From assembly GCA_014379795.1 (NCBI GenBank), contig JACMLC010000094.1, positions 1-33,678 of the forward strand: DNA of 33,678 nt, in the 5' to 3' direction. The stretch's first letter is position 1; each line of letters starts with the position of its first letter. The notes under the pieces were generated by a model. That model saw only the letters and a program-made list of their open reading frames with translations. It was not told where the DNA came from and made no database searches. This document shows, piece after piece, positions 12,798 to 33,678 of this stretch. The position numbers were made by a program, and so were the translations under genes. The DNA is from Pyrinomonadaceae bacterium. GTDB taxonomy: Bacteria > Acidobacteriota > Blastocatellia > Pyrinomonadales > Pyrinomonadaceae.

Positions 12798-15700
12798 TCA
12801 ATCCCGGGCCGGAGCAAGCTCCCGTTCTCGCGGATAGTCACGCGATGGCACTTGTGCTGTAGCGCGGCCATACTTCAGGTACAGGGCCGGAATCACGATC
12901 ATGTTGAGGAAAGTAGAAGTGACGATGCCGCCTAAGATCACGACAGCCATCGGCTGCTGAATCTCCTTGCCCGGCTCGCCCGCGCCCCACGCCAGCGGAA
13001 TTAACCCGACGCCCGTGACAATCGCCGTCATCAGGATCGGCGAAAGCCTCTCCATCGAACCCTGCACAATCGCGTCGCGAAACGGGACTCCCTCCTCCTC
13101 CATCAAATGCGTGTAATGCGAGATCAGCATGATGCCGTTGCGTGTGGCGATGCCGAACAGCGTGATGAAGCCGACGAGTGAGGCGATGGAGAGCGTTCCC
13201 CCGGAAAGGAAGACCATCACCACGCCGCCGATCAAAGCCAGCGGCAGGTTCGCCATCACCAGCGCGGCTGAGCGCGCCGATTTCAAAGCGATATAGAGCA
13301 ACAGGAAGATGCCGCCGATAGCGACGATGGAGAGCAGCGTGATGAGGCGCGAGGCTTTCTCCTGCGCCTCGAACTGCCCGCCATACTGTACGAAGTAGCC
13401 TTGCGGCAGTTGGACTTTTGTTCCGATGGCCTCGCGCACATCGTTGATGACGCTGCCCAAATCTCTATCGGCGACGTTTGCCTGAACGATGATGCGGCGC
13501 TGAACGTTCTCGCGGTTGAGGGTGTTCGGGCCTTGATCCACTCTCACTTCGGCGACCTGCCCGATAGGAACGCGCGCGCCCGTCGGCGTGTCAATCAAAG
13601 TGCGCTCGATGCTCTCCACAGATTCGCGCGACGCATCATCGTGGCGCACCAGCACGTCGTAGGTGCGCTGCTCTTCCAGGACCTGCGATGCAACGTGTCC
13701 GTTAAAGGCTGTGTCAACCGTTTCGGCTAAGTCTTCGGCTCTCAATCCGACTGCTGCTGCCGCCTGGCGGTTCATGTTGATTTGGACTTGCGGCACGCCG
13801 ACTTGCGGCTCGACGATCAGATCAACGATGCCGGGAACTCCCGCCATCTGGTCGCGTATCTCGGCAGCTTTAGTGCGTAAGGTCGCAAGGTCGGGTCCGA
13901 AAAGTTTGATGGCGATTTGCGCTCGCGTGCCTGAGAGCAGGTGGTCAATGCGGTGCGAGATGGGCTGGCCGACTTCCGCCTCGACGCCGGGGATGCGCGC
14001 GAGTCGCTGGCGCACGTCTTCCATAAACTCGGCGTGAGAGCGACTCCCCTCTTTCGTCACGACTTCGATCTCGCTGGTGTTGACGCCCGCCGCGTGCTCA
14101 TCCAATTCGGCACGCCCAGTGCGGCGAGTCGTCGAGACGACTTCAGGGACTTCATGCAGGACGGACTCGATGACATTGCCGATGCGGTTTGATTCCTTGA
14201 GGGAGGTGCCCGGCGGCATGTTGGCGTTGATGTTCAGCGTGCCTTCGTTGAACGGGGGCAGGAATTCGCGCCCCATGAACGCGAACAGCAGCATTGCGAC
14301 GAGCAGCATCGCGGCGGACGAAGCGATGATTTTATAAGGATGGCGAAGCGTCCAATTCAAGATTCGCGCGTAGCGCTTCTTCAGCCACGCGACAAGGCGT
14401 GAATCTTTCTCGTCGTGAAGCAGCTTCGAGCGACCGAGCAGGAAGTAGCAGAGCACGGGCGTCACGGTCAGCGCGACGATGAGCGAAGCCGTGATCGAGA
14501 TGATATAGGCAAAGGCGAGCGGCGCGAACATGCGACCTTCAAAGCCGCCCAAAGAGAAGAGCGGCAGGAAGACGATGACGATGATGAGCGTCGCAAAGAG
14601 GATCGAGTTTCTGATCTCGCTCGATGCGCGGAAGATGACATCTATCACGTGAGCGGGCGTCGGGCTGTGAGCGTTCTGCTTCAAACGGCGGAAGACGTTT
14701 TCGACATCTATGATCGCATCGTCCACGAGCGCGCCGATAGCGATGGCGAGGCCGCCCAAGGTCATCGTATTGATCGAAATATTGAAGTAGCTCATCACGA
14801 GAATCGCCGTGATGAGCGAGAGCGGAATCGCGGTCAAAGAGATGAACGTCGTGCGGAAGTTCCACAGGAAGAGAAACAGCACGACCGTCACCATGATGCC
14901 GCCTTCGATGATTGAAGCGCGCACGTTGCCGACAGCGCGATTGATAAAGTCGGATTGCTGGAACGCCTTCGTGTCAATCGTCACGTCCGGCGGCAGCGTC
15001 GCTTTCAAATTGGCGAGCGTCGTCTCAATCTGTTCGGTTACTTCGAGCGTGTTGGCGTTCGGCTGCTTCTGAATCGTGGCGACAACCGCCGGTTGCATGT
15101 TAAAGCTGCCGTCGCCGCGCTTCAGCGCCGCGCCCGCCTGCACCGTCGCCACGTTACTGATGAGAACGGGCACGCCGTCGCGCACGGTGATGACGGAGTT
15201 GGCGAGGTCTTCAGGCGTGTAAACGCGCGCCCGCCCTCGAATCAGGAACTCTTCGTTCGTGCGCTCAAGGAAACCGCCCGCCGCGTTCGCGTTCGAAGCC
15301 GTGACGGCTTCGACAACCTGCTCAAGCGTCAGCCCGTGATCCGCCAGCTTCGCCGGGTCAACGAGCACCTGAAACTGCTTGGTGTCGCCGCCGATAATCA
15401 TCACCTGAGAGACGCCTGTGACTCCAAGCAGGCGCGGGCGCACAGTCCAATCGGCAATCGAGCGCAACTCCATCGGTGAAGTCGTCTTGCTCGTCATCGA
15501 GATCAGCATGATCTCGCCCATCGTCGAAGAGATGGGACCCAAAACGGGCGGCGGAACTCCCGCAGGCAACCGGACTTGTTGCAATTTCTCATTGACAAGC
15601 TGGCGTGCGCGGTAGATGTCTGTGTCGAGGTTGAATTCGACGAAGACGATGGAGATGCCGATGGCCGAATTAGAGCGGACGCGATACACGCCCGCCGTCC

Positions 15701-18714: not shown

Positions 18715-19197
18715 CTACTCCACCTTGAAATCGGTTAAAGCCATCCGCTCGTCGAGCTTTTCATTCCTGATGTGAAACTCGATGTCGTAATCTCCCGCAC
18801 TCGGAATATTCACGTCTGCGACATAAATACCAGTCACTTTGCCGATGCGAGCTTTGATTTGCGCGACTTCCACGCCACCTTTGGCGCGTACGGAGAGCGT
18901 CACTTCCGCTTTCTCCACCGGTGTACCGTCTGAAAGATCGGTCAGGTGAATCAGAAACTGGCTTTGCTTTCCGGCTTTGAGAGGGTCGTACTCGAAGAAG
19001 TTTTCGATGCGGTTCGTAAACTCTGTACGAGCGAGGGCTTCCTCTTCAGGTTCGTCCTTTGCCTTCGGCTCTGCGCCACAAGCCCCTAAGCTGATTACCG
19101 CGAGCGCAAAAGCCATCAACATCATAAGACGACAGGCGGTAGTTTTTAAGGGCTTACTAAATGTGAATTGAAATGGCTTCAACAAACCGATCCTCAC
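18715..19197 (-). CDS. Lipoprotein with an Ig-like (YtkA/FixH-like?) domain; start uncertain
   Basis: 160-aa ORF from a GTG that overlaps the M56 stop by 1 nt (TAGTG). Alternative ATGs at 19125, 19122 and 19116. Lipobox ISLGAC. Beta-rich domain: FLIHLTDLSDGTPVEKAEVTLSVRAKGG...GDYDIEFHI. Confidence 0.6.
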   Translation of the reverse strand: MRIGLLKPFQFTFSKPLKTTACRLMMLMAFALAVISLGACGAEPKAKDEPEEEALARTEFTNRIENFFEYDPLKAGKQSQFLIHLTDLSDGTPVEKAEVTLSVRAKGGVEVAQIKARIGKVTGIYVADVNIPSAGDYDIEFHIRNEKLDERMALTDFKVE

Positions 19198-20279
19198 TAT
19201 TTAATAAACTGGATGATGGATTCTGCCGCCGTATGCACGGCGAGCGGCGCGTAGATGGCGGCTGCGAAGAGTGTCGTTGTAAAAACGGCAGCGATAAAGA
19301 GCGCCTCCGCATTTTGCGTTTTAGACAGTAGTCGGGCGTGTGCCTGTGTCGGCACCGCGTCGGCTAAACGGACGAGACGGCGCACGCGGCGCTCGACGCT
19401 TGGCGAATCGTCTGGAACAAACCCTGAAGCCAGAGCATCCGCCGGTCTGTTCTCGTTTGAGGTGAGAGTTTGCCGTCGCAGTTTGACAAGGGCGGAAGCC
19501 ACCTCCAGCGGAGCGGACGTGCGCCCTGCCGCTATCTCATCGCAGATCAACTCCACTTCCGCGCCGCGCCATCTCAGAATCAGACGCGAGAGCGGGAACG
19601 CAAGCGAGGCATAGCTTAGAGCGGACAGCAGTAGTTTTGCCAGATTGTCTCGACGCGTGTGGTGCGCCGCTTCGTGCTCAAGGACACCGGCTAACTCCGC
19701 CGGAGTCAGCGTGCGAAGCAGCCCGGAGGAGAGCACGAGTTTCGAGCGCCAGAAGCCCCACACGAAGGTGAACGGGTAGTCGCTCATCACAAGCCCAACG
19801 TCAAGGGCATGACGAGCCGCAGTTTGTTCGACAAGGGAGACTTGCCCCGGCGGCGGCGGGGCTGCATTCATTTCCAGTTTTTGAATCACCCGACCAACAC
19901 GCATGGAGCCGCGAATACTGGACCAGCACGCAAACAAGGCAGCACAGACCGCAAATGAAACGGTCGCGTAAGCAAGCATCGGATTAAGCTTTGCGGTCAA
20001 GTCGCTCAGGAGATGCAAGTCATGCAAGGGCGCGGTGTGCGCGGCGCGAAACGACGCTTCGCCGAGCCATGATTCAGGCAAGAGCGCGGTCGCGACGATC
20101 CACGCGGCTAAAACGGGCGGAAGAGCGAGCGTGACTGTGTAAAGGCGCGTTAAAGTGTGCGGATGGGGTTTCCAATATCCGTTCGCTGAGAGTGCTCGCG
20201 ACGACCAGGCGAAGACAAAGCCCACCAGCGCAAGCAGGGTGCTGAAGAGAATGAAATTTTCGACGGCTATAATAAACAC
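19197..20279 (-). CDS. M56-family (BlaR1/MecR1-like) membrane metalloprotease lacking an extracellular sensor domain
   Basis: 360-aa ORF. Several TM segments. Zinc motif HEXXH within LEHEAAHHTRRDN. The protein ends 12 aa after the last TM (ALFIAAVFTTTLFAAAIYAPLAV). No penicillin-binding-type domain. Confidence 0.85.
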   Translation of the reverse strand: MFIIAVENFILFSTLLALVGFVFAWSSRALSANGYWKPHPHTLTRLYTVTLALPPVLAAWIVATALLPESWLGEASFRAAHTAPLHDLHLLSDLTAKLNPMLAYATVSFAVCAALFACWSSIRGSMRVGRVIQKLEMNAAPPPPGQVSLVEQTAARHALDVGLVMSDYPFTFVWGFWRSKLVLSSGLLRTLTPAELAGVLEHEAAHHTRRDNLAKLLLSALSYASLAFPLSRLILRWRGAEVELICDEIAAGRTSAPLEVASALVKLRRQTLTSNENRPADALASGFVPDDSPSVERRVRRLVRLADAVPTQAHARLLSKTQNAEALFIAAVFTTTLFAAAIYAPLAVHTAAESIIQFIK

Positions 20280-20294
20280 TATGAACGCCTTTGC

Positions 20295-20744
20295 TTACTC
20301 GCTCGTGCTCTTACCTAGCTCGCGCCGTTTTTCCCGGATCATCTCTTCGAGCTGATTGAGCGCGCCCGCATCCTCACCAACCAGATCAACGAAAGCGGAA
20401 AGCGCGGGTTCCGTGAATTGACCGAGGAGCGCGCCCAAAACTTCCTGCGCCACGCCGCGCTCGAACTCTTCGCGCGTGTAGCGCGGCGTATAGACAAACG
20501 CCTTGCCCTGCTTCTCGCGCAAGAGATACCCTTTGCGGTGCATCCGGTCGAGCGTCGTCAACACGGTGGTGTGCGCGCTTCCGCGCCGCTGCCGCAGGTG
20601 TTCTTCGACCTCGTTGACGGTCTGCCCGGGAGCGCGCCACAGCACTTCCATGACCGCCGTCTCAAGCTCGCCGAGCACATGACCTGCGCCACGCGCGCCG
20701 GGCTTGAAACCGCGAAGTGTGATTTTAGGGTGAATACGATGCAT
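20295..20744 (-). CDS. BlaI/MecI/CopY-family winged-helix transcriptional repressor
   Basis: The ORF track starts at 20861, which runs through the promoter. The ATG at 20744 gives MHRIHPKITLRG...; an alternative GTG at 20678 gives (M)LGELE. Family pattern LGELETAVMEVLW...TVNEV...AHTTVLTTLDRMHRKGYLLREKQGKAFVYTP. No C-terminal CxCxxxxCxC motif. Confidence 0.85.
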   Translation of the reverse strand: MHRIHPKITLRGFKPGARGAGHVLGELETAVMEVLWRAPGQTVNEVEEHLRQRRGSAHTTVLTTLDRMHRKGYLLREKQGKAFVYTPRYTREEFERGVAQEVLGALLGQFTEPALSAFVDLVGEDAGALNQLEEMIREKRRELGKSTSE

Positions 20745-20786
20745 CAGAATATTTTCCCCTTCTCTGGACAACAAGGGAGAGAGCAG

Positions 20787-20820
20787 AGTATAAGAACCCA
20801 CATTAACTATTGTCAATAGT
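20787..20820 (-). promoter_or_regulatory. Sigma70-like promoter with an overlapping 15-bp perfect palindromic operator (copy A)
   Basis: Palindrome ACTATTGTCAATAGT (20806-20820). On the minus strand it contains the -35 TTGACA (20816-20811), followed by an 18-bp spacer and TATACT (20792-20787). Confidence 0.65.
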
Positions 20821-20868
20821 CGAAAAGCAAGAGGAGCAAAACCGGTCTCAGAGAAACGCATCTACACT

Positions 20869-21288
20869 ATGTTAATCGCACTCTTAACACTCTTCTTGTG
20901 GAGCTTTCTCGCCGCCACGGTGCTGCCGCTCAGCTCGGAAGCCCCTCTCATCGTCTACGTGCGCTCCTACCACCAGATAACGATTCCGGTGCTGGTGGCG
21001 ACTGTCGGGAACTACTTTGGCGCATGTACGACCTACTGGCTCGCACGGCGCACGGCTCAGGCTCTTGGCAGAGGACAGGAGGCGGCGAACAGTACGACTC
21101 GAAGCGCCAGGCTCATGCGTCGTTTCGGCCAACCCATCTTACTCCTCTCATGGGTGCCGGTCCTCGGCGACGCGCTTGTCGCCCTTGCCGGCGCGATGAG
21201 AATGCCTTTCGGGGTCTTCTCGCTCTGGATAGCCATCGGCAAGGGGCTTCGCTATCTGGCAGTGGCGTGGGCGGCTTCCGCCGTGTAG
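20869..21288 (+). CDS. YqaA-family (DedA-related) small inner-membrane protein
   Basis: 139-aa ORF. From memory it is collinear with E. coli YqaA: FLAATVLPLSSE..., GNYFG, LLLSWVPVLGD, AIGKGLRYLAVA. Divergent from the blaI-like gene, 48 nt from the palindrome. Confidence 0.8.
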   Translation: MLIALLTLFLWSFLAATVLPLSSEAPLIVYVRSYHQITIPVLVATVGNYFGACTTYWLARRTAQALGRGQEAANSTTRSARLMRRFGQPILLLSWVPVLGDALVALAGAMRMPFGVFSLWIAIGKGLRYLAVAWAASAV

Positions 21289-21441
21289 AGAAGATACAAA
21301 GCGCCACTCAACGCCATTATTACGGCCTCGCTCAGAAAGATGCGCCGGACACGCTTTTGTCCGCAGCCGGGACGGACAAAGCCGGAGTCATGACACGTCC
21401 GAGAAGCTCAGACGCTGCATGACAGCAGAAGGTTTATTCCC

Positions 21442-24507: not shown

Positions 24508-24636
24508 CTATCTCCACAGGATGTTAATCACGCTCATGTAGAGCGGAAGTCCAACGATGATGTTGAAGGGGAAAGTCAGCGCTAGAGCCATCGTCACATA
24601 CAGGCCAGGGTTCGCTTCGGGAATCGCCAGCCGCAT
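24508..24636 (-). pseudogene. 3-prime fragment (last ~42 codons) of a membrane permease gene, probably SbtA/DUF897-type, truncated at the IS remnant
   Basis: My own translation: ...[39 protein letters not shown], then a stop. Hydrophobic C-terminal TM. The coding frame is lost where IS256-transposase similarity starts on the opposite strand. The family is assigned only from its pairing with the P-II gene. Confidence 0.45.
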
Positions 24637-24925
24637 CACCCCGTTCTTCGCGTATCCTGAGGAGATTCGGAGAGTGATCTACACGACCAATGCGATTGAA
24701 TCAGTGAATATGTCTTTACGGAAGAGCATTAAGAATCTCGGGTCGTTCCCGACCGATGAGGCGACGATAAAGTTGCTCTACCTGGCGTTACAGAATGTCA
24801 GCCGGAAGTCGACGATGCCGATCAAAGAATGGAAGGCGGCGCTGAATCGCTTTGCGATTCTGTTCGAGGACCGGATGCCTGTCCTCTAGTGATGATCATT
24901 TACACAAACCTCTTGACACGCCCTC
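24637..24925 (+). mobile_element. IS256-family insertion sequence remnant (C-terminal ~85 codons of the transposase plus the right terminal repeat)
   Basis: The translation [80 protein letters not shown] matches the conserved IS256 transposase C-terminus (YTTNAIES motif). The N-terminal ~300 codons are absent. The downstream end ATTTACACAAACCTCTTGACACGCCC (about 24898-24923) resembles the IS256 right inverted repeat (TTTTACACAA...). Boundaries are approximate. Confidence 0.8.
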
Positions 24926-25109
24926 ACGCTCTGACCTTTTCATTTAAGATGCGTTCGCACTACCCACTACCGAAAATATGTTGCCGCGCTGCCGCAGAGT
25001 TTGTTATCCTCCCCGCATCGCTTCAGTCTTCACGGTGCGTCTCTACGCGACTCTTCAGATTCGCGCCGACTCAGCATTTCTATTTCCTTCACTCTGTGAG
25101 GTATCCTCA

Positions 25110-28058
25110 ATGAGCTATCTGGACACTCCGCGCCTCGTCTTCTCCGGGCGATTTCAGGCTGACCCCTCGACCATCAACAACGACCCGCATCACTTCGACA
25201 CGGGAACCTTTCGCTCTAATGACGAACTGTGGGGGCTAGGCGTGGCAAACGGGTGGTGGAACCCGAACGGGTCGGGCGCGTGGCGCTTCCGCGACTGCGT
25301 CGTGCGTCAAGTCGTCTACGGCGACGGCACCGTGTGCGACGACCCGAACATAGACCCGGTCATCGGCGCGCTCGTCAACGACTCGAACATCCGCGTCGAA
25401 GGCAAGCTTGTTGACCTCGACTCGGAGCAGCAGATGGTCTCTCAGATTTGGGGCTTCCAAGTGGCGCTCAGCCCGTCGCCCACCAACCCCAGTCAGCCGG
25501 TCTTCGGCTTCCGCAGCGACTTCCAAATGGCTCCCTTCGCAGACATCTGGGTGCGCGTCCCGTCGGGGCAGCCCGACTCGTTCTTCGGCGCTTTCTACCA
25601 GAGCATCCTGACGAACATCGAGTGGGTCGGAGCGGGTAACGACACCTGGACGCAAAACTCGCGCTACCTCCGCGAGCTGGCGGGCGCTGGCGGGCCTCCG
25701 CCGCAGCTCAGCATCCGCTTCAACGTGGACGCCTACAACATGGCTGACCCGACTGCGCCGGAGTTCACGTTCGGGCGCGTCGTCGGCGCCATCGGGCCGT
25801 ACGACTCGGGCGAGCCGGTTCACTTTGTCGCTGGCCGGTCGCTCCAGCCCCCCATACCCCCGCCTAACCCGTCGCTCAACACCGCCTACGCGCAGGTCGA
25901 AGGCGACGTACTCACGCTCGACATGGGCAACAGCCTCCCCGACCAGGCTTTGGGCGGCCCGACCATTAACCTCGGGACGCTCTACGCCGCCATACTGCCG
26001 CCCCCGCCCGCCCAACCGGTGATACTTGGCTCCATCCCTTACACAGACAACGACTGGTATGCGAAGACGGCTGGCATCATCTCCTACACGCTCGACCCCA
26101 AGCAGGCGGAGCTGGCCGCCAGCGCTCAGCTCGGCGTCGTTCAGTCTGGCCCCAACGGTATTGCGCCGATGCTCTCCGAGGCCCCGAACGGCCTGTGGCT
26201 GCGCGCCGACCAGTTCGTCTTCAGGCTCAACCCCGGCGAGAAGGGCCAGCAAGACGAAAGCAACGTGACGACCTTTTACGCCACCACCTTCGGCCAGCCC
26301 ACCGCAGGCCAACAGATCAGCCTCGCCTACGACTCGACCATCATGCAGGGGTTCGTCCAGCAAGACCCCACGCTGGTGCCCGGCCCGCTCCCGGGACAGC
26401 CCGAAACCGTACTCAGCCTGTCTGTCCCGCCGCCGTCCTGCGAGGACTCAACCGGCGAGACGACGCTCCCCCTGCCGGCCACGATCACAACCGGAAGTGA
26501 CGGTAAGGTCACCGTGGCGCTCAAGGCGACAGACCCCGGCAACCCGCGCGGCTACATCGACGGGCAGATTTACGGTGTCACCTACGGCCCCGGCCCGGAG
26601 CCGCCGCCCGTCGGCGCTATAGGGAACTCGAGCCAGATTCTCAACGCGCTTGTCTTCTCCGGCTACGACGCGCCGGACGAGCCTGACTGGATGATAGACG
26701 TGCAGCCCATCTTCGAGCAGTACGCCAACCTCTACCCGGTGATGCGCCCCATCGTCGATCTGGCCGACTACGCCAGCGTCGTCAGCCGGACAGCGGCGCT
26801 CTTCAACGTCTTCAGCAGGTCGCTCGACGATCCCAATTACATGCCCGTCACGCGCGATCTCTCGAAGCCGAAGCGGGATATGATCCTGAACTGGCTCAAA
26901 GGGTCGCCGCCGCTCTACATGAAGCTCGACTCGAAAGAAGATTTGATGGTCGCGCTGCAACAGGCCATTGAGCTGGAGCACTCGACCATTCCGCCTTACC
27001 TCACCGCGCTCTACAGCATCAAGCCCGGAGCCAACGAGGAAGTGGCGGAACTCATCCGCAGCGTCGTCATCGAGGAGATGCTGCACATGGCGCTCGTCTG
27101 CAACATCGTCGTCTCCCTCGGCGGAAGCCCGCAGATAGGCAAACCCGGCTTCGTGCCGAACTACCCCGGCCCGCTGCCCGGCGGCCTGCTCGGCGGTCTG
27201 ACCGTGCGCCTGCGCCGTTGCTCCATCGAGCAGATACGCGACGTGTTCATGTTCATCGAGAAGCCTGAAGTGACCATGGACCCGGCAGAGCGCGCCGCTC
27301 GCCGCGCCGGCTCGAAAAAGTCTCAGGAGTCCGTCATCGAGAGAATCCACAACGAGGTTAAAGAAGCGCTGACCGGCTCGGACGACGCGCGCCGGAAGCA
27401 GCTCGCCGAGCCGCTGGACATGCGCGGCTACCCCGGCGGGCCGAGAACGGCCAACCCGTACACCATCGGCTGGTTCTATGACCAGATTAAAGAGTCCCTG
27501 ACGAACTTGAGTGGCGCAAGCCAGATCTCCTTCGGCCACGCAGACCAACAGGTCTCGGACTGGACTGGGACAGGAAAGCTCTACGTCATCAACAGCCTTG
27601 AGGACGCAATCCGTGCCATTGACGAGATCAAGTCGCAGGGCGAAGGCGCTTCGCCGCGCGATCCTGACGATGGGGACAGCGAGCTGGCGCACTATTACAA
27701 GTTCTCCGAGATTGTTCACGGTCGCCGCATCATCGTCGGAAAGGACGGGTACTCCTACACCGGCGGGCACATCCCTTTCGACCCCAACGGCGTCTACGCG
27801 ATGACGGACGACCCGGAGGCGGCGCTGTTCCCGGACGGCTCGCGCGCGCTCATCCTCTCCAAGCAGTTCGCGGAAACCTATCAGGCGCTTCTGAACGGCC
27901 TGCACCGCACCTTCAACGGCGAGCCGGACTACCTCGGGCAGGCCGTCGGCATCATGTTCTCGCTCAGCGTCATCGCGCGCAACCTGATGCAGACGCCTTC
28001 CGGGCTGGGCGACGGCACGACCGCCGGCCCGTCCTTCCAACTCCCCGACCCGCTGTGA
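25110..28058 (+). CDS. VioB/StaD/RebD-family protein (iminophenylpyruvate dimer synthase-like; C-terminal ferritin-like domain), 982 aa
   Basis: The ORF track starts at 24978, but the ATG at 25110 follows GAGG (8-nt gap). From memory it is collinear with C. violaceum VioB: MSYLDTPRLVFSGRF..NNDP vs MSILDFPRIHFRG..NRDP; YMPVTRDLSKPK vs YMPSTRELSAPK; AIELEHSTIPPYLTALYSI vs VDLELSVMLQYLYAAYSI; VIEEMLHMALVCN vs IAHEEMIHYLVVN; SQGEG vs DQGEG. Similar length (VioB is ~1000 aa). Confidence 0.85.
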   Translation: MSYLDTPRLVFSGRFQADPSTINNDPHHFDTGTFRSNDELWGLGVANGWWNPNGSGAWRFRDCVVRQVVYGDGTVCDDPNIDPVIGALVNDSNIRVEGKLVDLDSEQQMVSQIWGFQVALSPSPTNPSQPVFGFRSDFQMAPFADIWVRVPSGQPDSFFGAFYQSILTNIEWVGAGNDTWTQNSRYLRELAGAGGPPPQLSIRFNVDAYNMADPTAPEFTFGRVVGAIGPYDSGEPVHFVAGRSLQPPIPPPNPSLNTAYAQVEGDVLTLDMGNSLPDQALGGPTINLGTLYAAILPPPPAQPVILGSIPYTDNDWYAKTAGIISYTLDPKQAELAASAQLGVVQSGPNGIAPMLSEAPNGLWLRADQFVFRLNPGEKGQQDESNVTTFYATTFGQPTAGQQISLAYDSTIMQGFVQQDPTLVPGPLPGQPETVLSLSVPPPSCEDSTGETTLPLPATITTGSDGKVTVALKATDPGNPRGYIDGQIYGVTYGPGPEPPPVGAIGNSSQILNALVFSGYDAPDEPDWMIDVQPIFEQYANLYPVMRPIVDLADYASVVSRTAALFNVFSRSLDDPNYMPVTRDLSKPKRDMILNWLKGSPPLYMKLDSKEDLMVALQQAIELEHSTIPPYLTALYSIKPGANEEVAELIRSVVIEEMLHMALVCNIVVSLGGSPQIGKPGFVPNYPGPLPGGLLGGLTVRLRRCSIEQIRDVFMFIEKPEVTMDPAERAARRAGSKKSQESVIERIHNEVKEALTGSDDARRKQLAEPLDMRGYPGGPRTANPYTIGWFYDQIKESLTNLSGASQISFGHADQQVSDWTGTGKLYVINSLEDAIRAIDEIKSQGEGASPRDPDDGDSELAHYYKFSEIVHGRRIIVGKDGYSYTGGHIPFDPNGVYAMTDDPEAALFPDGSRALILSKQFAETYQALLNGLHRTFNGEPDYLGQAVGIMFSLSVIARNLMQTPSGLGDGTTAGPSFQLPDPL

Positions 28059-28091
28059 AAAATTAGCCCCTTTCTCTTTAACCGATCCGAC

Positions 28092-28120
28092 CCCGCCCGC
28101 GTGCTCAAAGCGCGGGCGGG
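28092..28120 (+). other. GC-rich hairpin between the VioB-like gene and the downstream small gene
   Basis: CCCGCCCGCG (28092-28101), loop TGCTCAAAG, CGCGGGCGGG (28111-28120): a 10-bp perfect stem. No U-tract, so it is not a canonical intrinsic terminator. Confidence 0.4.
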
Positions 28121-28156
28121 ACACCGGCAATCAGAACATGATAGGAGAGTAAGAGC

Positions 28157-28627
28157 ATGCGCAGACTGACCTACGCGCTTGAGTTCGTCCGCAAAGCCGC
28201 AGCGCCCGAGGCAACGGCAGAGCCGATAGTCGCTTCGAGCGTCCGTATCACCACAACCATGAACCCTAAAGGCGTGCAGGGAGACATCGAACAGCTTGGC
28301 GATTTCGAGACGGCGACACTGGAAGTCAAATTGATCCCGACCACGCTACCCGGAACTTTTACGGAGACGGGGAAGCTCACCTTCGGCGGGCCGGGCAGTA
28401 ATAACAATCTTTACTTTAGCTCCATCGGCCTCGGCTACGTGGCCCCTTACAAATGCCCCGAGGAGCCTTACACGGCGGGCGTCGTGTCGTGGGTGATAGT
28501 CTGGGGGGAGGGCTTCTTTGAAGGGGCGTCCGGCATCATCACTTCCAACTTCCTCGTAGACAAAACTAAGCCCAACGACACCGGAGAATTGATTGCTTAC
28601 CACTTCGGCGTGATTTACCTGCCATAG
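28157..28627 (+). CDS. Small cytoplasmic protein, possibly an allene-oxide-cyclase/dirigent-like beta-barrel
   Basis: 156-aa ORF. Strong SD AGGAGAG 7 nt upstream of the ATG. No signal peptide. Beta-rich, with the motif VWGEGFFEGASGIITSNFLVD, which resembles the G-x-G-x-F-x-G-A-x-G pattern of AOC/dirigent-like barrels. The fold assignment is tentative. Confidence 0.6.
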   Translation: MRRLTYALEFVRKAAAPEATAEPIVASSVRITTTMNPKGVQGDIEQLGDFETATLEVKLIPTTLPGTFTETGKLTFGGPGSNNNLYFSSIGLGYVAPYKCPEEPYTAGVVSWVIVWGEGFFEGASGIITSNFLVDKTKPNDTGELIAYHFGVIYLP

Positions 28628-28700
28628 CTCGCACACGATGAGTTATGCGATTTATGCCCTTTTGATTAGCTGTATCCTGACTGTTGATGAACAAGACACC

Positions 28701-28769
28701 TCACGCAAAGGCGCAAAGACGCAAAGTAAGTTTGAAAAGTTTACTTTGCGTCTTTGCGCCTTTGCGTGA
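28701..28769. repeat. Perfect 29-bp inverted repeat (hairpin) built from three 8-nt direct repeats, between convergent operons
   Basis: Left arm TCACGCAAAGGCGCAAAGACGCAAAGTAA (28701-28729), 11-nt loop, right arm TTACTTTGCGTCTTTGCGCCTTTGCGTGA (28741-28769). The arms contain (A/G)CGCAAAG three times. No flanking T-run. Confidence 0.85.
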
Positions 28770-28832
28770 ACACTTCGTCGCTACATATCGGCAGGGTGCA
28801 GCTAATCTCAAATCGCAATAATTTTTTAGAGA

Positions 28833-29249
28833 CTATTGTGGTAACGACGCGGCGAGTTTCATCATGGCTTGCTCTTCGGCCTCGGTGATTTCGCCTTCCC
28901 TGCTCCAAGCTATTCCGACGACGGCGCGCACCGCGCCCGCATCATCAAGCACAGGCAATGCGACTGCTGCCTGTGCGTCAACGGCCTTTGCGCCCGGCTT
29001 GATGTTGCCCGTGTCATCTGTTTGCAGGTTGCAGGTCTGCACCGGCGACTTTTGCACCTGAGCCATCCCAGCCATCCCTTTGCCGTGAGGCACGCGCGCC
29101 ACGATGGCGACCACTGCGGGCGGGATGTTATGCGCCGCCGTCAGGAAGAGGTCTTCGCCGCGCTGCACATGCACCGTGCCTGCGCTCGCGTCGTGCTGTG
29201 CGATGAACAACTCCAGCCACTTCTGCTGTGCCTGATTCTGCTCGTACAT
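28833..29249 (-). CDS. Single-domain GAF-like protein
   Basis: 138-aa ORF. Pattern AGTVHV...L.L.AAHNIPP....V..VPHGKGMAGMA......V...NLQTD......P.A......A..LPV.......GVVGIAW, typical of small stand-alone GAF proteins. Its ATG lies 2 nt after the stop of the upstream gene. Confidence 0.6.
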   Translation of the reverse strand: MYEQNQAQQKWLELFIAQHDASAGTVHVQRGEDLFLTAAHNIPPAVVAIVARVPHGKGMAGMAQVQKSPVQTCNLQTDDTGNIKPGAKAVDAQAAVALPVLDDAGAVRAVVGIAWSREGEITEAEEQAMMKLAASLPQ

Positions 29250-29251
29250 TT

Positions 29252-30157
29252 CTATTTCTCCATGAGCGGGATGGACAGATAACCGGAGATGTAGCAGCAG
29301 AGGGCGTCGCCGTCAAAGCCGCCCATCCAGAAGCTGAGCGGCCAGGTCGTTTTTTCGTCCGCGCCGATTTTGTTCTCGTGGACTGTGCCGTTGATGTCCA
29401 CGCTCCAGCCGTAGCCTAGCAGCGTCAACTGGTGCGCGCGGCGATCAATAGGTTCGCCCTGCGACAATTCCCACCAGCGGTGGAGGATGTTTAGCTGGCT
29501 GATGCGCGTTTCGAGCGCGGCGCGCTCAACCGGGTTTCGTGTGCGCTTGAGCAGTTCTTCCAGATTCCTTTGCCGTATGCGCCGGTTGTTGATGCAGGAA
29601 TCGTTAGAGGCATCGGGCAAGCCCGTCGCTTTGGCGACTTCGACGGAGTTGTCAGTTAAGCCCTGCGGTTGCCGACGCTCAAGCATTTCGGAGGTAGCCT
29701 GCATGATGGGCAGGTCGGGGTTGCTCGGATCAAGAAAGTCTTCGCGGTCGAGCACGAGCGTGCCGCGCTTTTTTCGCACCTGAACGCGCAAAGGGTCTAT
29801 GGCGTAAAGGTCGTTGCGGATGAGGATGCCGTTGCGCTCGGTGAGTTGGGCTTTGACGAAGGAGACGCGCGCGTCCAGGTATTCCGGCGCTTCACTGTAA
29901 CGGAGCGTCTCGTCGTCGTACCACTTCGCCTGCCGAACCGTCACGCCGACGCGTGGGCCAATGTCGTTTTTCCCGTAGCCGAAACGGCGCTCACAGACGC
30001 CCTCTTCGTCGGGTTGCAGGTGGAGAAGGTTGTCAAAGTCCGGCTCTCCGGCCAGCGCGAAGGTGTAGCCGCTGAGGCCGCGCGGCTCGTCCGTTGGATC
30101 TGGATCGGTAGCCATCCGCATCTGAAAGTAACCTTCGAACGAAAGATAAAGCCACAT
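29252..30157 (-). CDS. Hypothetical protein resembling the N-terminal module of VioB-family proteins
   Basis: 301-aa ORF. Its start lies 5 nt after the ferritin-like gene stop. Three collinear motif anchors to the N-terminus of the 982-aa protein: LYLSFEGYFQ...TDPDP vs RLVFSGRFQ...NNDP; VTVRQAKWYDDET vs CVVRQVVYGDGT; WSVDINGT...CCYISGYLSIP vs IRFNVDAY...FGRVVGAIGP. Confidence 0.7.
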   Translation of the reverse strand: MWLYLSFEGYFQMRMATDPDPTDEPRGLSGYTFALAGEPDFDNLLHLQPDEEGVCERRFGYGKNDIGPRVGVTVRQAKWYDDETLRYSEAPEYLDARVSFVKAQLTERNGILIRNDLYAIDPLRVQVRKKRGTLVLDREDFLDPSNPDLPIMQATSEMLERRQPQGLTDNSVEVAKATGLPDASNDSCINNRRIRQRNLEELLKRTRNPVERAALETRISQLNILHRWWELSQGEPIDRRAHQLTLLGYGWSVDINGTVHENKIGADEKTTWPLSFWMGGFDGDALCCYISGYLSIPLMEK

Positions 30158-30162
30158 GATTT

Positions 30163-31557
30163 TTATTCACCCCTTCCGACGTTTTTCCAGTTCGCGCGCC
30201 AGTCGTCAGACAGCCGCCGCATGTTCTCTGCCATATAGTGCAGCCGCTTGACGATCTTATCGTCCGCAGGTCGTAGCTCGTAAATCCAGAGATTGTCGAA
30301 CTGCCATGTGAGAATGTCGAAGTATTTCTGAAACTCGCTCCAAGTGTCTTCCGGCTGCGGCAGAAGCAGCAAGTCTTTCGAGAGTTCGAACCCCGGCCCG
30401 GCGTTACCTTTCTTATCTTTGAAGGCCGGGAGCAAGGTGAGAATTTCGCTTAAGGGGCGGATGAACATCGTCATCAGGGGAAAGAAAATGGCGTTCATCA
30501 GCGCGACGGTTTGCGCCTTTGTCTTCTTGTTGCTGCCGTAGAGAAACAGCATCATCAGGAGCATCAATTCGTAAGCGTGATTGAACAGGATTGCTATCTC
30601 GCGCGTTTCGGGGCGCGTGATGAGGTTCACTTCGTCGGGCGCGGTGATGTCTGGGTGCATGCTCGTCAGAGGGTTACGCACGACGGGGCGTGCGGCATCG
30701 AAGCCGCCCATTTGACTGAGCATCGTTGTGAAGATGCAATAGTGCGTGTGCTCTAAGTATTCGGGCGGCGCGAGGACGCCCTCACCCTGCTCGACAATTT
30801 CGACAATCGCTTCAATCGCGCTGTGCAGGTCACAGACCTGTATGAGGTCTAAGCCATACTGGCTGAGGTCATCCATCGAGCCTTCGCCATATGGCGTTCC
30901 CGGCCCGCCCCACATCTCCGCGTTAAAGTCGCCGATGAATAAATTCTTCTCGCCGATTCTCTCCGTTACAATGATGAAGCCCCAAGCGAGACTCATGTAG
31001 AGGTCTTGCACAGAGGTGAAGCCGATTTCGGACAGGAGCACCTGCCTGCCTCCCGTCGCGCCGGACGCCTGCGCCGCGCTGTGCGTGAAAACTTGCGGCG
31101 CAAGCAACTGCGCGCGGATGTCCTCACGGCTGGCGATGCCGCGCGTCTTGCAGAAGTCCGGGCCGGGAGCTGGATGCGGGGCTTCAAACTCCTGAAAGCG
31201 TTTGATAGTGTCTTTGCTGAAGCGCGTCAGTTCGGATTTGATGCCGAGCTTCCCGTAGACCTCTTTGCGCTGCGGGAAGTTTGGACGCTGGAAGTTAGGC
31301 GTGCCGCCGATGGCCGAGAGAAGGTTGAGCACAAGTCCCATGTGCTCCATCTCCTGCCGCGCGACGAGCGTCATCAGCCCACCCCAGCCGCGCGTCTTTT
31401 CCAGTTGCACCTCGCTGAGTCCCTCATCGGTTGAGCGCTTCATCGTGTAGGCGGCGAACAGATACTGGCACATCAAATTATGCTCAAGCTCTGCGGCCAG
31501 ATGCAGCGTGTTGATTAAATCTTCGCGAGTGGTGAGTTCTATCGTCAATGGTTTCAC
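30163..31557 (-). CDS. Stand-alone ferritin-like domain protein (VioB/RebD C-terminal-half type)
   Basis: 464-aa ORF. HLAAELEHNLMCQYLFAAYTM and VARQEMEHMGLVLNLLSAIGG match the ferritin-like helices of the 982-aa protein and of VioB. VEQGEGVLAPPEYLEHTHY...RPVVRNPL parallels VioB TDQGEGG..SPHYEHSHF...LPALRNPVL. Confidence 0.85.
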   Translation of the reverse strand: MKPLTIELTTREDLINTLHLAAELEHNLMCQYLFAAYTMKRSTDEGLSEVQLEKTRGWGGLMTLVARQEMEHMGLVLNLLSAIGGTPNFQRPNFPQRKEVYGKLGIKSELTRFSKDTIKRFQEFEAPHPAPGPDFCKTRGIASREDIRAQLLAPQVFTHSAAQASGATGGRQVLLSEIGFTSVQDLYMSLAWGFIIVTERIGEKNLFIGDFNAEMWGGPGTPYGEGSMDDLSQYGLDLIQVCDLHSAIEAIVEIVEQGEGVLAPPEYLEHTHYCIFTTMLSQMGGFDAARPVVRNPLTSMHPDITAPDEVNLITRPETREIAILFNHAYELMLLMMLFLYGSNKKTKAQTVALMNAIFFPLMTMFIRPLSEILTLLPAFKDKKGNAGPGFELSKDLLLLPQPEDTWSEFQKYFDILTWQFDNLWIYELRPADDKIVKRLHYMAENMRRLSDDWRANWKNVGRGE

Positions 31558-31576
31558 CTCTATCTATTATTAAGAC

Positions 31577-32224
31577 TTAGGAGCGCGCACGTCGTCTGGC
31601 GAGATAAGGTTCGACCGTGCGGCCAATCAGCCAGAAGCATCCGGCGACGAGAACCACGAGTCCGAACACCAGCGCGGCATTCTCGAATTTAGCCGCCGCC
31701 GCTCCCGTCAGCGCGTAGAGCAAGGCCGGAGGCAGCGAGCCAGTCACAGCAGCCAGCGCGGCTCGTCCCGGACTCATGCCGGAGGCCCCTGCCATGATTG
31801 CCACTGTCTCTGCTAATAAAGGCACTGGACGCGTGACGATAATCGCCAGCGTTCCCCAACGTTTGAGCAAACCGTCTGCGCGCTCACGCTCTTCCGGAGT
31901 TAATAGACGCTCTAACAATCTTCCTCCACGCCTGCCGAGCCAGAAGCCGAGCATGGCTGCTCCAACGCTTCCCGTAAGTGACAACAGCGTTCCACCCACG
32001 ACGCCAAAAAGCGCGCCATGCGCCACCATGATAAGGCTTGAAGGAACGGGCAACACTACGTCTGCGAGGAGCAGGCCCACGCCAAGCATTGCTGCCCACG
32101 GGCCGCCGTGATTCAACGACGGAGTCGGGTCAACCAGCAGCGGAACGCCTAGAGCCTTGACCAGAAAACAGAGGCTGAGGAAGAAGGCGAACATGCCGCA
32201 CATGATTGAGAAATATCGCTTCAT
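31577..32224 (-). CDS. DedA/TVP38-TMEM64 (VTT-domain) family membrane protein
   Basis: The ORF track starts at 32278, overlapping the receptor gene. The ATG at 32224 gives MKRYFSIMCGMFAFFLSL. VTT-type pattern: ADVVLPVPSSLIMVAHGALFG...GFWLGRRGG...RWGTLAIIVTRPVPLLAETVAIMAGASGM. Confidence 0.8.
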   Translation of the reverse strand: MKRYFSIMCGMFAFFLSLCFLVKALGVPLLVDPTPSLNHGGPWAAMLGVGLLLADVVLPVPSSLIMVAHGALFGVVGGTLLSLTGSVGAAMLGFWLGRRGGRLLERLLTPEERERADGLLKRWGTLAIIVTRPVPLLAETVAIMAGASGMSPGRAALAAVTGSLPPALLYALTGAAAAKFENAALVFGLVVLVAGCFWLIGRTVEPYLARRRARS

Positions 32225-32231
32225 CCTTCTT

Positions 32232-33678
32232 TCAACGTCGAAGCAAGTCGAAAAAATCCATCGTCGCTCCGAAGACAAAGGAGCGTCCCGGAGCGGGCGC
32301 AGTTTGAAAAGGCTCGAAGTAGAGCGTGTCTGTCAGATTATCCAAGCCAAAGGTCAGTGACACTCTGTATGTCTCCCGGCGATAGTTGTAAACGGCTCGC
32401 AGAGAATGTTTCGTGAATGGACTGAGGCTGGCAAAACTTCCATATTGAGTAGAGATGGCCGTCGCCAGCTCAAGCGGGTCAACGCGCGTCACGCGAGCTT
32501 GATGGCGAATTTCGTATTGGGCCAGCCAGACGCCCTTACGGTCACTGTAACGCGCGCCAAAGTGTGCGCCGAAAGGAGAGATGCCGGATAAAGGAGCATC
32601 GCTGGCAGAGCCGCGCAGGCGCAAGGGGGTGTCATCGCGGTTATAAAATGTCTCGATGAGCGTCAGCGCATTTTGCTCCGGCGTTAAGTCAGAGCCTTTG
32701 AGCCACCCCATCGTGCCATAGGGAGTAAGACTCCCTGCTCTGCCCAGGTGAAAGCTTATTTCGTAAGCGGCTTCAACTCCCTGAATCCGCGCGCGCGCAG
32801 TGTTGCCGCGCTGCACATAGAGCACGCCGTGAAACGGGAAGAACGGAGAGATAGGCTCAAGCCCCTGCGCCGGATTAGCAGGCACAAAGAGCGTCTCGGA
32901 AAATTCGTTGCGAATAAAATCCTTCAGATGATTACGAAAGTAGCCAACCGAACCAGACCAACGCTGACGCTCGATTTTGATGCCGAACTCAAAATTGCTG
33001 CCTCTCTCCGGCTTCAAAGTAGTGTTCGGAACCAGCAACACGCTGAAAGTCGGATCGCCAAAATTTCGCAGGATGTAACGCTCCGTCACGCCGGGTTCGC
33101 GGTAGCTACTGCCCCAACGAAAATACGGATTGAGGCTGCCCGGAAGACGCAGCACGATTCCCAGATTACCCGTGACGCTCGTTTTACTCGTGCTGATACC
33201 GCTCGCGCCGTTGATGAGTGGAATGATGCCGCTCGCGCCGCCGATGTTGACCGCGCCGGGGTTAGCTGTAAGTGAGGCAAAAGACGCATTCAGAATTGCT
33301 GTCTCCGTGCTGAGCGGAAAGCCCTGTGTAATCTTCGCTTCTGTCTGCCAGTTATCAACGCGCAAGCCGCCGGTTAGACGCAGCCATGTGCGCGGCTCAT
33401 ATTCCAGTAGATTGAACCAGCTCAGGTTTCTGTAAACAGAATCAGGAGTGGTCGCTCTGTCGCTGATAAAATTTCGCGGCGCGAGTGTGACGGGCGTAAA
33501 GTCGAAACGCGAAAACTCATCTCTTGATGAGTCGCGCAAGTAACCGATGCCCGTCGTCAGCCATGCGCTCTTAAATGGACTGAGCGTCGCCTGTGCCTCC
33601 GCGCCGTAAGTCGTCACGGAGTTTTTGCCGTCTGTAAAGTTTGCCGGAGTGAAAACGGATGGATTCCCTGTTAAGACC
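32232..33678 (-). CDS. TonB-dependent outer membrane receptor, C-terminal beta-barrel part; the N-terminus lies beyond the window end
   Basis: The frame is open to the window edge: the GTG at 33617 in the ORF track is internal, and upstream codons read ...VLTGNPSVFTPANFTDGKNS. Barrel motifs: GVEAAYEISF, LTFGLDNLTDTLYFEPF, GRSFVFGATMDF. Confidence 0.9.
   Translation of the reverse strand, partial: VLTGNPSVFTPANFTDGKNSVTTYGAEAQATLSPFKSAWLTTGIGYLRDSSRDEFSRFDFTPVTLAPRNFISDRATTPDSVYRNLSWFNLLEYEPRTWLRLTGGLRVDNWQTEAKITQGFPLSTETAILNASFASLTANPGAVNIGGASGIIPLINGASGISTSKTSVTGNLGIVLRLPGSLNPYFRWGSSYREPGVTERYILRNFGDPTFSVLLVPNTTLKPERGSNFEFGIKIERQRWSGSVGYFRNHLKDFIRNEFSETLFVPANPAQGLEPISPFFPFHGVLYVQRGNTARARIQGVEAAYEISFHLGRAGSLTPYGTMGWLKGSDLTPEQNALTLIETFYNRDDTPLRLRGSASDAPLSGISPFGAHFGARYSDRKGVWLAQYEIRHQARVTRVDPLELATAISTQYGSFASLSPFTKHSLRAVYNYRRETYRVSLTFGLDNLTDTLYFEPFQTAPAPGRSFVFGATMDFFDLLRR

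Follow-up and report, generated by a model that had tools for sequence, protein, structure and literature searches.

The stretch of DNA analysed here (the window) is a contig of 33,678 nucleotides (JACMLC010000094.1) from a Pyrinomonadaceae bacterium of the Acidobacteriota. It carries a locus in which the genes of a 982-residue protein and a 156-residue orphan converge with an operon for a TonB-dependent receptor, a DedA-family protein, a 464-residue ferritin-like protein, a 301-residue protein and a 138-residue GAF protein. Our tentative reading is that the locus encodes enzymes of the VioB/RebD (PF12902 ferritin-like) superfamily that work as a non-canonical system and are coupled to envelope transport. 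With similar reserve, we suggest a metal-dependent oxidase system that would act on an aromatic metabolite trafficked across the envelope and would not synthesize bisindoles; each of these preferred statements is held with less than even confidence. The characterized members VioB, StaD and RebD are heme enzymes that dimerize indole-3-pyruvate imine, and their genes sit beside those for a flavin adenine dinucleotide (FAD)-dependent L-tryptophan oxidase (VioA, StaO or RebO) and tailoring enzymes. The original prediction, made from this DNA before our analysis, had proposed a different, uncharacterised use of the VioB scaffold. This proposal stands because the VioB domain and architecture are present, the window has no tryptophan oxidase partner, and the gene set is conserved in other genomes.

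The 982-residue protein, whose start was taken at MSYLD as in its homologues, combines an N-terminal domain (N-domain) with a C-terminal PF12902 domain at residues 616–869 (E = 7e-60, 203 bits; gathering score 22.3). The VioB/RebD domain predicted for both large proteins was also found in the 464-residue protein (E = 5e-31). As a reference we used a Chromobacterium violaceum VioB sequence, which was validated at 1924 bits over the full length of TIGR04492, the VioB equivalog (cut-off 1250). A hidden Markov model (HMM) of the N-domain, built from the N-terminal ~620 residues of the 982-residue family, matched this VioB at E = 1e-31; the matches cover residues 1–376 and 500–628 and take in the N-terminal motif MS.LD.PR..F.G. 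An HMM of the C-terminal ferritin-like domain (FERc) matched it at E = 7e-22. TIGR04492 itself gave the 982-residue protein 22.5 bits, in a local match only. The protein thus possesses the true two-part VioB architecture (an N-domain of ~600 residues and a C-terminal PF12902 domain in one chain), but it is not a VioB orthologue.

The N-domain is beta-rich to about residue 520 and is followed by a helical linker. In an AlphaFold2 model (predicted local distance difference test, pLDDT, 79), the N-terminal part (residues 1–520) is all-beta and the C-terminal part is helical. Foldseek aligned the C-terminal part with Protein Data Bank (PDB) entry 3HL1 (E = 7e-8, template modelling score 0.71 to the target), and the N-terminal part gave only generic immunoglobulin-like matches. 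No VioB-type structure was found among the PDB entries searched. Residues 19–55 form a conserved segment that is predicted to be disordered on its own.

Homologues of ~900 residues number more than 850, are spread over many phyla and are labelled "ferritin-like protein" or "hypothetical". The family occupies 275 loci among 185,579 species-representative genomes from many phyla, and more than 1,800 standalone N-domain proteins were found, all of them without a Pfam domain. The enzyme occurs either fused (~900 residues) or as adjacent genes of ~600 and ~350 residues, the latter in Flavobacterium, Algoriphagus, Spirosoma, Pseudomonas cichorii and others. In the P. cichorii locus (L084, positions 13068–14747; L numbers denote the related loci compared), a 559-residue flavin mononucleotide enzyme with a glutamate-synthase domain (PF01645) is encoded directly after the split N-domain/FERc pair. 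Such enzymes act on alpha-imino acids, and this one might provide a VioB-like enzyme with imines by another route.

The second ferritin-like protein belongs to a different arrangement. The 464-residue protein aligned with TIGR04492 at 80.4 bits over VioB positions ~791–937 (cut-off 1250) and is 26% identical to the C-terminal domain of the 982-residue protein (E = 7e-15). Judged from these alignments, it is a PF12902 paralogue and the equivalent of the C-terminal half of VioB. The family-invariant motifs ELEH, EMxH and QGEG and a downstream His are kept in both window proteins; VioB has EMxH, QGEG and the His, and only the ELEH histidine is absent from it.

The family of the 301-residue protein comprises 453 clusters at 50% identity, chiefly of standalone proteins with 270–330 residues. 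Among the Pyrinomonadaceae relatives the protein is 85–91% identical, which assigns the window to this acidobacterial family. It had no match in Pfam or among PDB sequences. Its AlphaFold2 model was of good quality (pLDDT 86, predicted template modelling score 0.86), and Foldseek with this model returned nothing from the PDB below E = 0.1. Of 41 related loci that are 6 kb or longer, ~40 have a 301-type gene directly 3' of a PF12902 gene. Natural fusions place the PF12902 domain first and the 301 domain after it (P0287, 681 residues; P0388, 750 residues; P0317; P0382; and a 1234-residue protein of Symploca, L051). The most conserved segment of the 301-residue protein (residues 18–60, with an invariant DPDP...RG.SGYTFA..GEPD) is predicted to be disordered on its own, as one would expect if it took up its fold on a partner. 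Because of the adjacency, the fusions and this conserved disordered segment, we conclude that the 301-residue protein is a dedicated partner of the ferritin-like protein. The ferritin-like gene and the 301-type gene are called the FER-301 pair below.

The original prediction described the locus as a fused and a split copy of VioB, with the 301-residue protein as a counterpart of the VioB N-module. The fused copy is indeed the 982-residue protein, but the split copy holds only in part. Between the 301-residue protein and the 982-residue family, neither BLASTP nor a first, shallow hhalign comparison found anything. With deeper profiles, residues 1–225 of the former and 5–213 of the latter gave a colinear alignment with a score of 28.2 (P 0.011, probability 3.9%); 40 block shuffles all scored lower, with 27.8 as the highest value. 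Using the 301-family HMM, the N-terminal strand motif of the N-domain lay in register in 15 of 18 positive hits and in none of 33 controls, although the scores were not above those of the controls. The starts of the two proteins have similar predicted secondary structures (a long strand, a conserved disordered loop and a long strand), and an N-terminal motif of ~17 residues is common to the 301-residue protein and the VioB N-module. What remains of the claimed likeness is this short motif and a marginal profile alignment, and we did not accept the 301-residue protein as a VioB N-module.

True N-modules of ~600 residues are encoded by separate genes beside the same operon in L004, L005, L085, L086, L087, L088 and L089. 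L086 has three standalone copies, one of them with a fused cupin. Since these N-modules stand beside the sister operons, and since the fusions put the 301 domain after the ferritin-like domain, the 464/301 pair is not a simple split VioB. The window is best described as encoding one VioB-architecture protein and an apparently distinct two-subunit relative. The 301-residue subunit may have descended from the first part of the N-domain.

Conservation extends to the pairing, to the order of the operon genes and to the accompanying N-domain protein. The order receptor-DedA-FER-301-GAF was found in L085, L087, L088 and L092 (the last ends after the 301-type gene) and, with insertions, in L086. A JGI contig (sample 3300067032) has the receptor, the VTT (DedA) gene and the FER-301 pair without the GAF gene. 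In L005 and L098 the FER-301 pair is convergent with receptor-DedA-N-domain, and in L004 FER-301-GAF is divergent from the genes of a 651-residue N-domain protein, a lipoprotein and a 156-residue homologue. As in the window, the FER-301 pair lies beside a fused ~900-residue protein in L001/L090, L008 and Symploca L051. An N-domain protein is encoded a few kb or less from the FER-301 pair in all loci of the Pyrinomonadaceae clade and also in L001, L008 and L051. The recurrence of the gene set in other genomes, which had been proposed as a check, was thus observed.

The 156-residue orphan had no match in Pfam or NCBIfam even at E values up to 5. Its homologues lie 3' of N-domain genes in L004 and L085, both of Pyrinomonadaceae type, and in L077 (Chloroflexia), where the gene follows a split N-domain/FERc pair. 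The gene keeps its position after the GAF gene in L085, and the position is also kept in L004. A protein of ~535 residues without a Pfam domain is encoded between the standalone N-domain gene and the 156-residue gene in L004 (4551–6152) and L085 (14042–15658). In L004 the N-domain protein starts with MSYLDLPRLHFSG, and the intervening 533-residue protein has the lipoprotein signal LVAGC. In L085 (12269–13975), the 156-residue homologue is separated from the genes for the 538-residue and N-domain proteins by an insertion that encodes an HNH protein and an IS605 OrfB/TnpB (Cas12f-like) protein.

The features of the window are collected in Table 1. The layout, the intergenic gaps of 7, 19, 5 and 2 nucleotides in the minus-strand operon and a perfect 29-bp hairpin between the two units were as originally described; the gaps require the ATG at 32224 as the DedA start. 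The assignment of the operon partners as a TonB receptor, a DedA protein and a GAF protein was likewise borne out by Pfam.

Table 1. Positions and assignments of the features in the window.
Feature	Position	Strand	Remarks
Mutator/IS256-family transposase, C-terminal fragment	24557–24889	+	PF00872, profile positions 318–373 of 379
982-residue VioB-architecture protein	25110–28058	+	N-domain from residue 1 to ~600, then C-terminal PF12902
156-residue orphan protein	28157–28627	+	downstream of N-domain gene
Perfect 29-bp inverted repeat	28701–28769		arms 28701–28729 and 28741–28769, 11-nucleotide loop, between convergent units
138-residue stand-alone GAF_2 protein	28833–29249	−	last operon gene; GAF_2 E = 1.8e-8
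301-residue partner protein	29252–30157	−	no known domain
464-residue ferritin-like protein	30163–31557	−	PF12902 E = 5e-31, 109 bits
DedA/VTT inner-membrane protein	31577–32224	−	215 residues from ATG; PF09335 E = 4e-20
TonB-dependent receptor	32232–33678 (window end)	−	C-terminal ~480 codons visible; PF00593 E = 1.7e-29

Full-length orthologues of the receptor (~940–960 residues; CarboxypepD_reg, Plug and barrel) head the same operon in L085, L086, L087, L088 and L092. The DedA protein scored 73 bits against PF09335 (cut-off 33.9) and 30 bits against the UptA equivalog (cut-off 250); it is a member of the DedA family and not an identified UptA. The GAF protein matched GAF_2 (PF13185) with 35.1 bits (cut-off 28.6). 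PDB sequence and Foldseek searches with the 301-residue, GAF and 464-residue proteins gave nothing informative. Upstream of the orthologous receptors, the best candidates for a Fur box had 6–9 mismatches in 19 positions and none was convincing. In L085, L086, L087 and L092, the non-coding sequence ~250–330 nucleotides upstream of the receptor start contains a block that is conserved (CTAATTGAAATC ... TTCACTAATCACGAATTAGTCTCACACAA) and includes an inverted CTAATT/AATTAG pair; this block may be an operator. In L086 (688–1985), genes for an extracytoplasmic function (ECF) sigma factor and a ChrR-like (Cupin_7) anti-sigma factor are divergent from the receptor-to-GAF operon, which hints at singlet-oxygen or oxidative-stress regulation in that relative.

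To identify recurrent neighbours, all open reading frames (ORFs) of 84 loci were clustered all against all. The six ebo genes (eboA–F) were found in 16–18 of these loci, from three phyla: Undibacterium and a related metagenome-assembled genome, Flavobacterium/Flavicella, and Symploca. A tblastn search with the Undibacterium EboA–F proteins placed ebo genes in 18 loci carrying 982-residue homologues. In Flavobacterium the order is N-domain, FERc, VOC and eboA–F, with gaps of 30–40 nucleotides. In Undibacterium an 892-residue protein heads eboD-E-C-A-GAF, and eboB and eboF are divergent. Symploca L051 combines eboD, eboE, eboF, DedA, the FER-301 pair, the FER-301 fusion, a fused 948-residue protein and a split N-domain/FERc pair.

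Members of the GAF family occur in 14 of the 84 loci and in the window, in addition to further close relatives, and in the Undibacterium, Terriglobia and Myxococcaceae loci they accompany the ~900-residue family independently of the FER-301 pair. The window GAF protein is 67% identical (E = 4e-59) to the one encoded right after eboA in Undibacterium sp. TS12, which belongs to another phylum. This similarity is the strongest bridge from the ebo-less window to the ebo-linked loci. That ebo operons repeatedly contain members of this enzyme family, and the same GAF protein as well, is in our view the strongest lead to a putative function, and one that the original prediction did not have.

The other recurrent partners were a ~145-residue VOC/glyoxalase protein (12 loci), which takes the position of the GAF gene in Bacteroidota, DedA (9 loci), a ~640-residue TonB receptor (cluster c17, 9 loci), PQQ-type and GSDH/SGL-type beta-propellers, and a Lipocalin_5 protein. 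DedA lies beside family members in the window relatives and in L045, L051, L063, L068, L070 and L072. A Pfam census of 123 nearest-neighbour ORFs from ~47 further loci was topped by the TonB receptor, the PQQ propeller and VTT, with four members each. Clusters c23, c24 and c29 (SDR, ABC ATPase and AraC) were uninformative, and c28 was an antisense ORF artefact. The neighbours of distant FER-301 pairs were likewise set aside as a lead, being only generic families (ABC ATPase, adenylate cyclase/AAA/TPR). A radical-SAM/SPASM enzyme and one or two small DUF1843 proteins, possibly a pair like those of ribosomally synthesized and post-translationally modified peptides, are encoded a few kb from VioB-like/GAF genes in two phyla (Undibacterium L002, 19905–22279; Pyrinomonadaceae-type L086, 16165–17989).

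In a preprint, the ebo genes have been reported to make the algal signal thallusin via saccharoquinoline; thallusin is metal-chelating, and no enzyme has been identified for the oxidative ring-opening that leads to it (10.64898/2026.05.21.724671). Earlier work tied ebo to the export of scytonemin monomers, and the EDB cluster of Pseudomonas fluorescens NZI7, with six ebo genes and three unknown genes, to tryptophan-derived indoles. When the P. cichorii N-domain was used as the query, the homologues retrieved included none from P. fluorescens. We found no mention of a ferritin-like or VioB-like gene in the ebo literature searched, and no study of this subfamily in the literature on PF12902 and on VioB with ferritin-like proteins.

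Under our preferred reading, the 464- and 301-residue proteins would form a two-subunit enzyme. The 301-residue protein may supply in trans what the N-domain gives in cis, namely a conserved N-terminal strand and a loop that would fold on the ferritin-like domain. The invariant Glu/His cluster (ELEH, EMxH, QGEG and His) could hold a metal or heme cofactor, and the catalytic domains would use O2 or H2O2 to oxidize an electron-rich aromatic or N-heteroaromatic acid, by coupling or by ring opening. No VioA-type oxidase would supply this substrate, which would be imported or recycled, crossing the outer membrane through the TonB receptor and the inner membrane through DedA, possibly as a metal complex. 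The GAF protein may bind the small molecule, as a carrier or a sensor. Because homologues of the 982-residue protein and the same GAF protein are encoded inside ebo operons, the likeliest substrate would be a prenylated hydroxyquinoline of the ebo type (saccharoquinoline or thallusin kind) or a related metal-chelating aromatic compound. A bolder version, which we consider unlikely in its full extent, is that the 464- and 301-residue proteins, the N-domain proteins and the conserved GAF protein form a new class of multi-subunit VioB-superfamily metallo-oxidase that acts on an ebo-type prenylated hydroxyquinoline or thallusin-like chelator. Such an enzyme would perform the missing ring-opening or tailoring step in ebo carriers, and in this Pyrinomonadaceae bacterium it would be joined to the TonB receptor and DedA, letting the cell import and process (pirate or recycle) a cross-kingdom signal or metallophore of its neighbours.

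Several observations weigh against a transport-coupled, ebo-type function. The tblastn search found no ebo gene in the 33.7-kb window, and in ~60 of 79 family loci both ebo genes and a TonB receptor are missing within 10 kb. No conserved transport neighbours accompany the distant FER-301 pairs (30–58% identity). The window receptor is barely similar to the c17 receptors of other phyla; therefore, the link to receptors arose more than once or is partly due to chance in receptor-rich genomes. The direction of transport (import or recycling) is something that we infer. Finally, in the study on thallusin no accessory oxidase was shared by all of the producers (10.64898/2026.05.21.724671).

Four other explanations were weighed. 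In the first, the locus serves heme or tetrapyrrole acquisition and processing: heme would enter through the receptor and be bound or degraded by the ferritin-like proteins, and a tetrapyrrole would be the ligand of the GAF protein. VioB and RebD bind heme b, and tetrapyrroles are possible ligands of GAF domains. Among the NCBIfam models, those of heme/hemoglobin receptor subfamilies matched the receptor fragment best (TIGR01785, E = 1.8e-31, and TIGR01786), and genes of the ABM fold (IsdG-type) occur in the homologous loci L001 and L086. However, the receptor matches of 109 and 102 bits are far under the cut-offs of 317 and 324, with the C-terminal half alone scored, the ABM genes are confined to these two loci, and the operon lacks a periplasmic binding protein, an ABC permease and a known heme oxygenase. 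Heme acquisition would also leave the ebo embedding, the VOC partner and the PQQ/GSDH propellers unexplained, and we regard it as decidedly unlikely.

It is also improbable, in our estimation, that the plus-strand unit and the minus-strand operon are unrelated neighbours and that only the 464/301 pair is a real unit. Distant FER-301 pairs do lack a nearby N-domain, receptor, DedA and GAF gene, the N-domain gene of the closest relatives is a different, standalone paralogue, and an insertion sequence (IS) fragment lies just upstream of the 982-residue gene. This explanation is countered by the N-domain proteins that lie near the FER-301 pair throughout the Pyrinomonadaceae clade and in L001, L008 and L051, by the 156-residue gene that holds its position after GAF in L085, and by the association of GAF with the ~900-residue family where no FER-301 pair is involved.

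Iron or oxidative-stress housekeeping, with rubrerythrin- or Dps-like proteins for the storage or detoxification of iron or peroxide and the GAF protein as a repair enzyme like free methionine-R-sulfoxide reductase (fRMsr), is a poor candidate and very unlikely. The GAF_2 family includes fRMsr. The ferritin-like fold, the Glu/His cluster and weak bacterioferritin matches would suit this role, some sources name the homologues "rubrerythrin", and the ECF sigma and ChrR-like anti-sigma genes stand beside the operon in L086. On the other hand, storage ferritins do not resemble these proteins of 460–980 residues with large extra domains. The GAF protein contains just one Cys, and no fRMsr chain is among its PDB matches at E values up to 1. 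A role in metabolism and not in storage is also indicated by the obligate 301-residue partner, the N-domain and the presence in ebo operons.

Canonical bisindole biosynthesis of the violacein or indolocarbazole type, with the tryptophan oxidase and tailoring genes encoded elsewhere, has the whole VioB architecture of the 982-residue protein and FAD-enzyme neighbours in a few related loci (DAO in three and Trp_halogenase-like in two of the 123 ORFs) in its favour, but it is most improbable, as the VioB equivalog was failed widely (22 and 80 bits against 1250), no VioA/StaO-, VioE-, StaP/RebP- or StaC-type gene occurs in the window or recurs in the ~47 dereplicated loci, the two "Trp_halogenase" neighbours are probably ~390-residue FAD enzymes without the WxWxIP motif, and the conserved partners are transport and periplasmic proteins. 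The absence of a VioA/StaO/RebO or tailoring gene from the window, which the original prediction had stressed, was seen among all window ORFs scanned. No cluster of tryptophan oxidases or tailoring enzymes emerged from the all-against-all comparison, and the amine-oxidase family was absent from the 25 most frequent neighbour families listed for the 123 ORFs, the least frequent of which had two members.

Two further features of the window were examined for a connection with the locus. The arms of the hairpin between the convergent units are 29 nucleotides long and 100% complementary (fold −84 kcal/mol, z −11.8), and each arm is three copies of CGCAAAGN. Hairpins from tandem units of this kind lie at unrelated intergenic sites in L004 (3865–3967), L005 (2066–2128 and 8394–8416), L034 (12801–12864) and L095 (736–750); they were found in Acidobacteriota loci and in one Chitinophaga locus. 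Because the same repeat motif occurs at unrelated sites, the hairpin is a dispersed CGCAAAG-repeat element and not locus-specific, and a regulatory element peculiar to this locus was ruled out. It is probably an element resembling repetitive extragenic palindromic sequences, or a bidirectional terminator.

The rest of the window is a copper/metal-efflux island with a YHS-type P-type ATPase, a cupredoxin, two MerR regulators, a CusCBA-like system, HupE/UreJ and P-II. The metal island that had been named as the neighbourhood of the locus is thus present upstream, but it is absent from all related loci compared, and the transposase fragment (Table 1) sits exactly between the island and the VioB-like locus. 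This suggests that the juxtaposition is a rearrangement scar. Since no related locus has such an island and a transposase fragment marks the boundary, the context is incidental and a link between island and locus was rejected. Inside the CusCBA-type island, positions 19197–20861 and 18715–19197 encode a BlaR1/M56-M48 peptidase-like sensor and a BlaI/Penicillinase_R repressor, together with a YtkA-like protein. A 139-residue ORF of the island (20869–21288, plus strand) had a phmmer match to the DedA protein of the locus. It may be a second, short VTT-like protein and may overlap an ORF in another frame (20898–21422).

The locus places a VioB/RebD-superfamily enzyme in a new genetic context; we found no characterized member of this subfamily, and neither the N-domain nor the 301-residue protein has a Pfam family. 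VioB, StaD and RebD are known only as bisindole formers, and the same architecture is seen here in a large, phylogenetically broad family with other partners. The family includes a two-gene variant, composed of the ferritin-like and 301-residue proteins, whose second subunit has no Pfam family or solved structural relative. The link to ebo offers a concrete candidate for the unassigned oxidation of saccharoquinoline to thallusin, and, with a TonB receptor and DedA in the operon, the abundant soil Acidobacteriota may have a route for taking up such compounds.

Compared with siderophore and metallophore uptake loci, the window is alike in having a TonB receptor in one operon with cytoplasmic enzymes and an inner-membrane protein. 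It differs in lacking a periplasmic binding protein, an ABC or MFS siderophore permease, a reductase and an esterase, and to our knowledge DedA has not been described as a siderophore transporter. The sole solved structure that matches is Caulobacter CC_0557 (PDB 3HL1; sequence E = 1e-7), which has the four-helix core of the PF12902 type. This protein has 317 residues, lacks an N-domain and a known partner of the 301 type, and has its ELEH histidine replaced (ELW). CC_0557 is a structural-genomics entry without a known function; therefore, no mechanism can be transferred from it.

In comparison with VioB, StaD and RebD (TIGR04492), the 982-residue protein retains the two-part architecture, a homologous N-domain and the EMxH, QGEG and His positions, and the 464-residue protein aligns to the C-terminal half of VioB. 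Unlike VioB, the window proteins possess the ELEH histidine, and their partners are the TonB receptor, DedA, GAF and the 301-residue protein, the last of which is not known from bisindole clusters. Compared with the ebo loci of the thallusin/saccharoquinoline type, the window itself lacks the ebo genes. However, homologues of the 982-residue protein, either fused or as proteins of ~600 and 350 residues, head ebo operons or sit inside them, the closely similar GAF gene ends the Undibacterium ebo operon, and DedA and the FER-301 pair cluster with ebo genes in Symploca L051.

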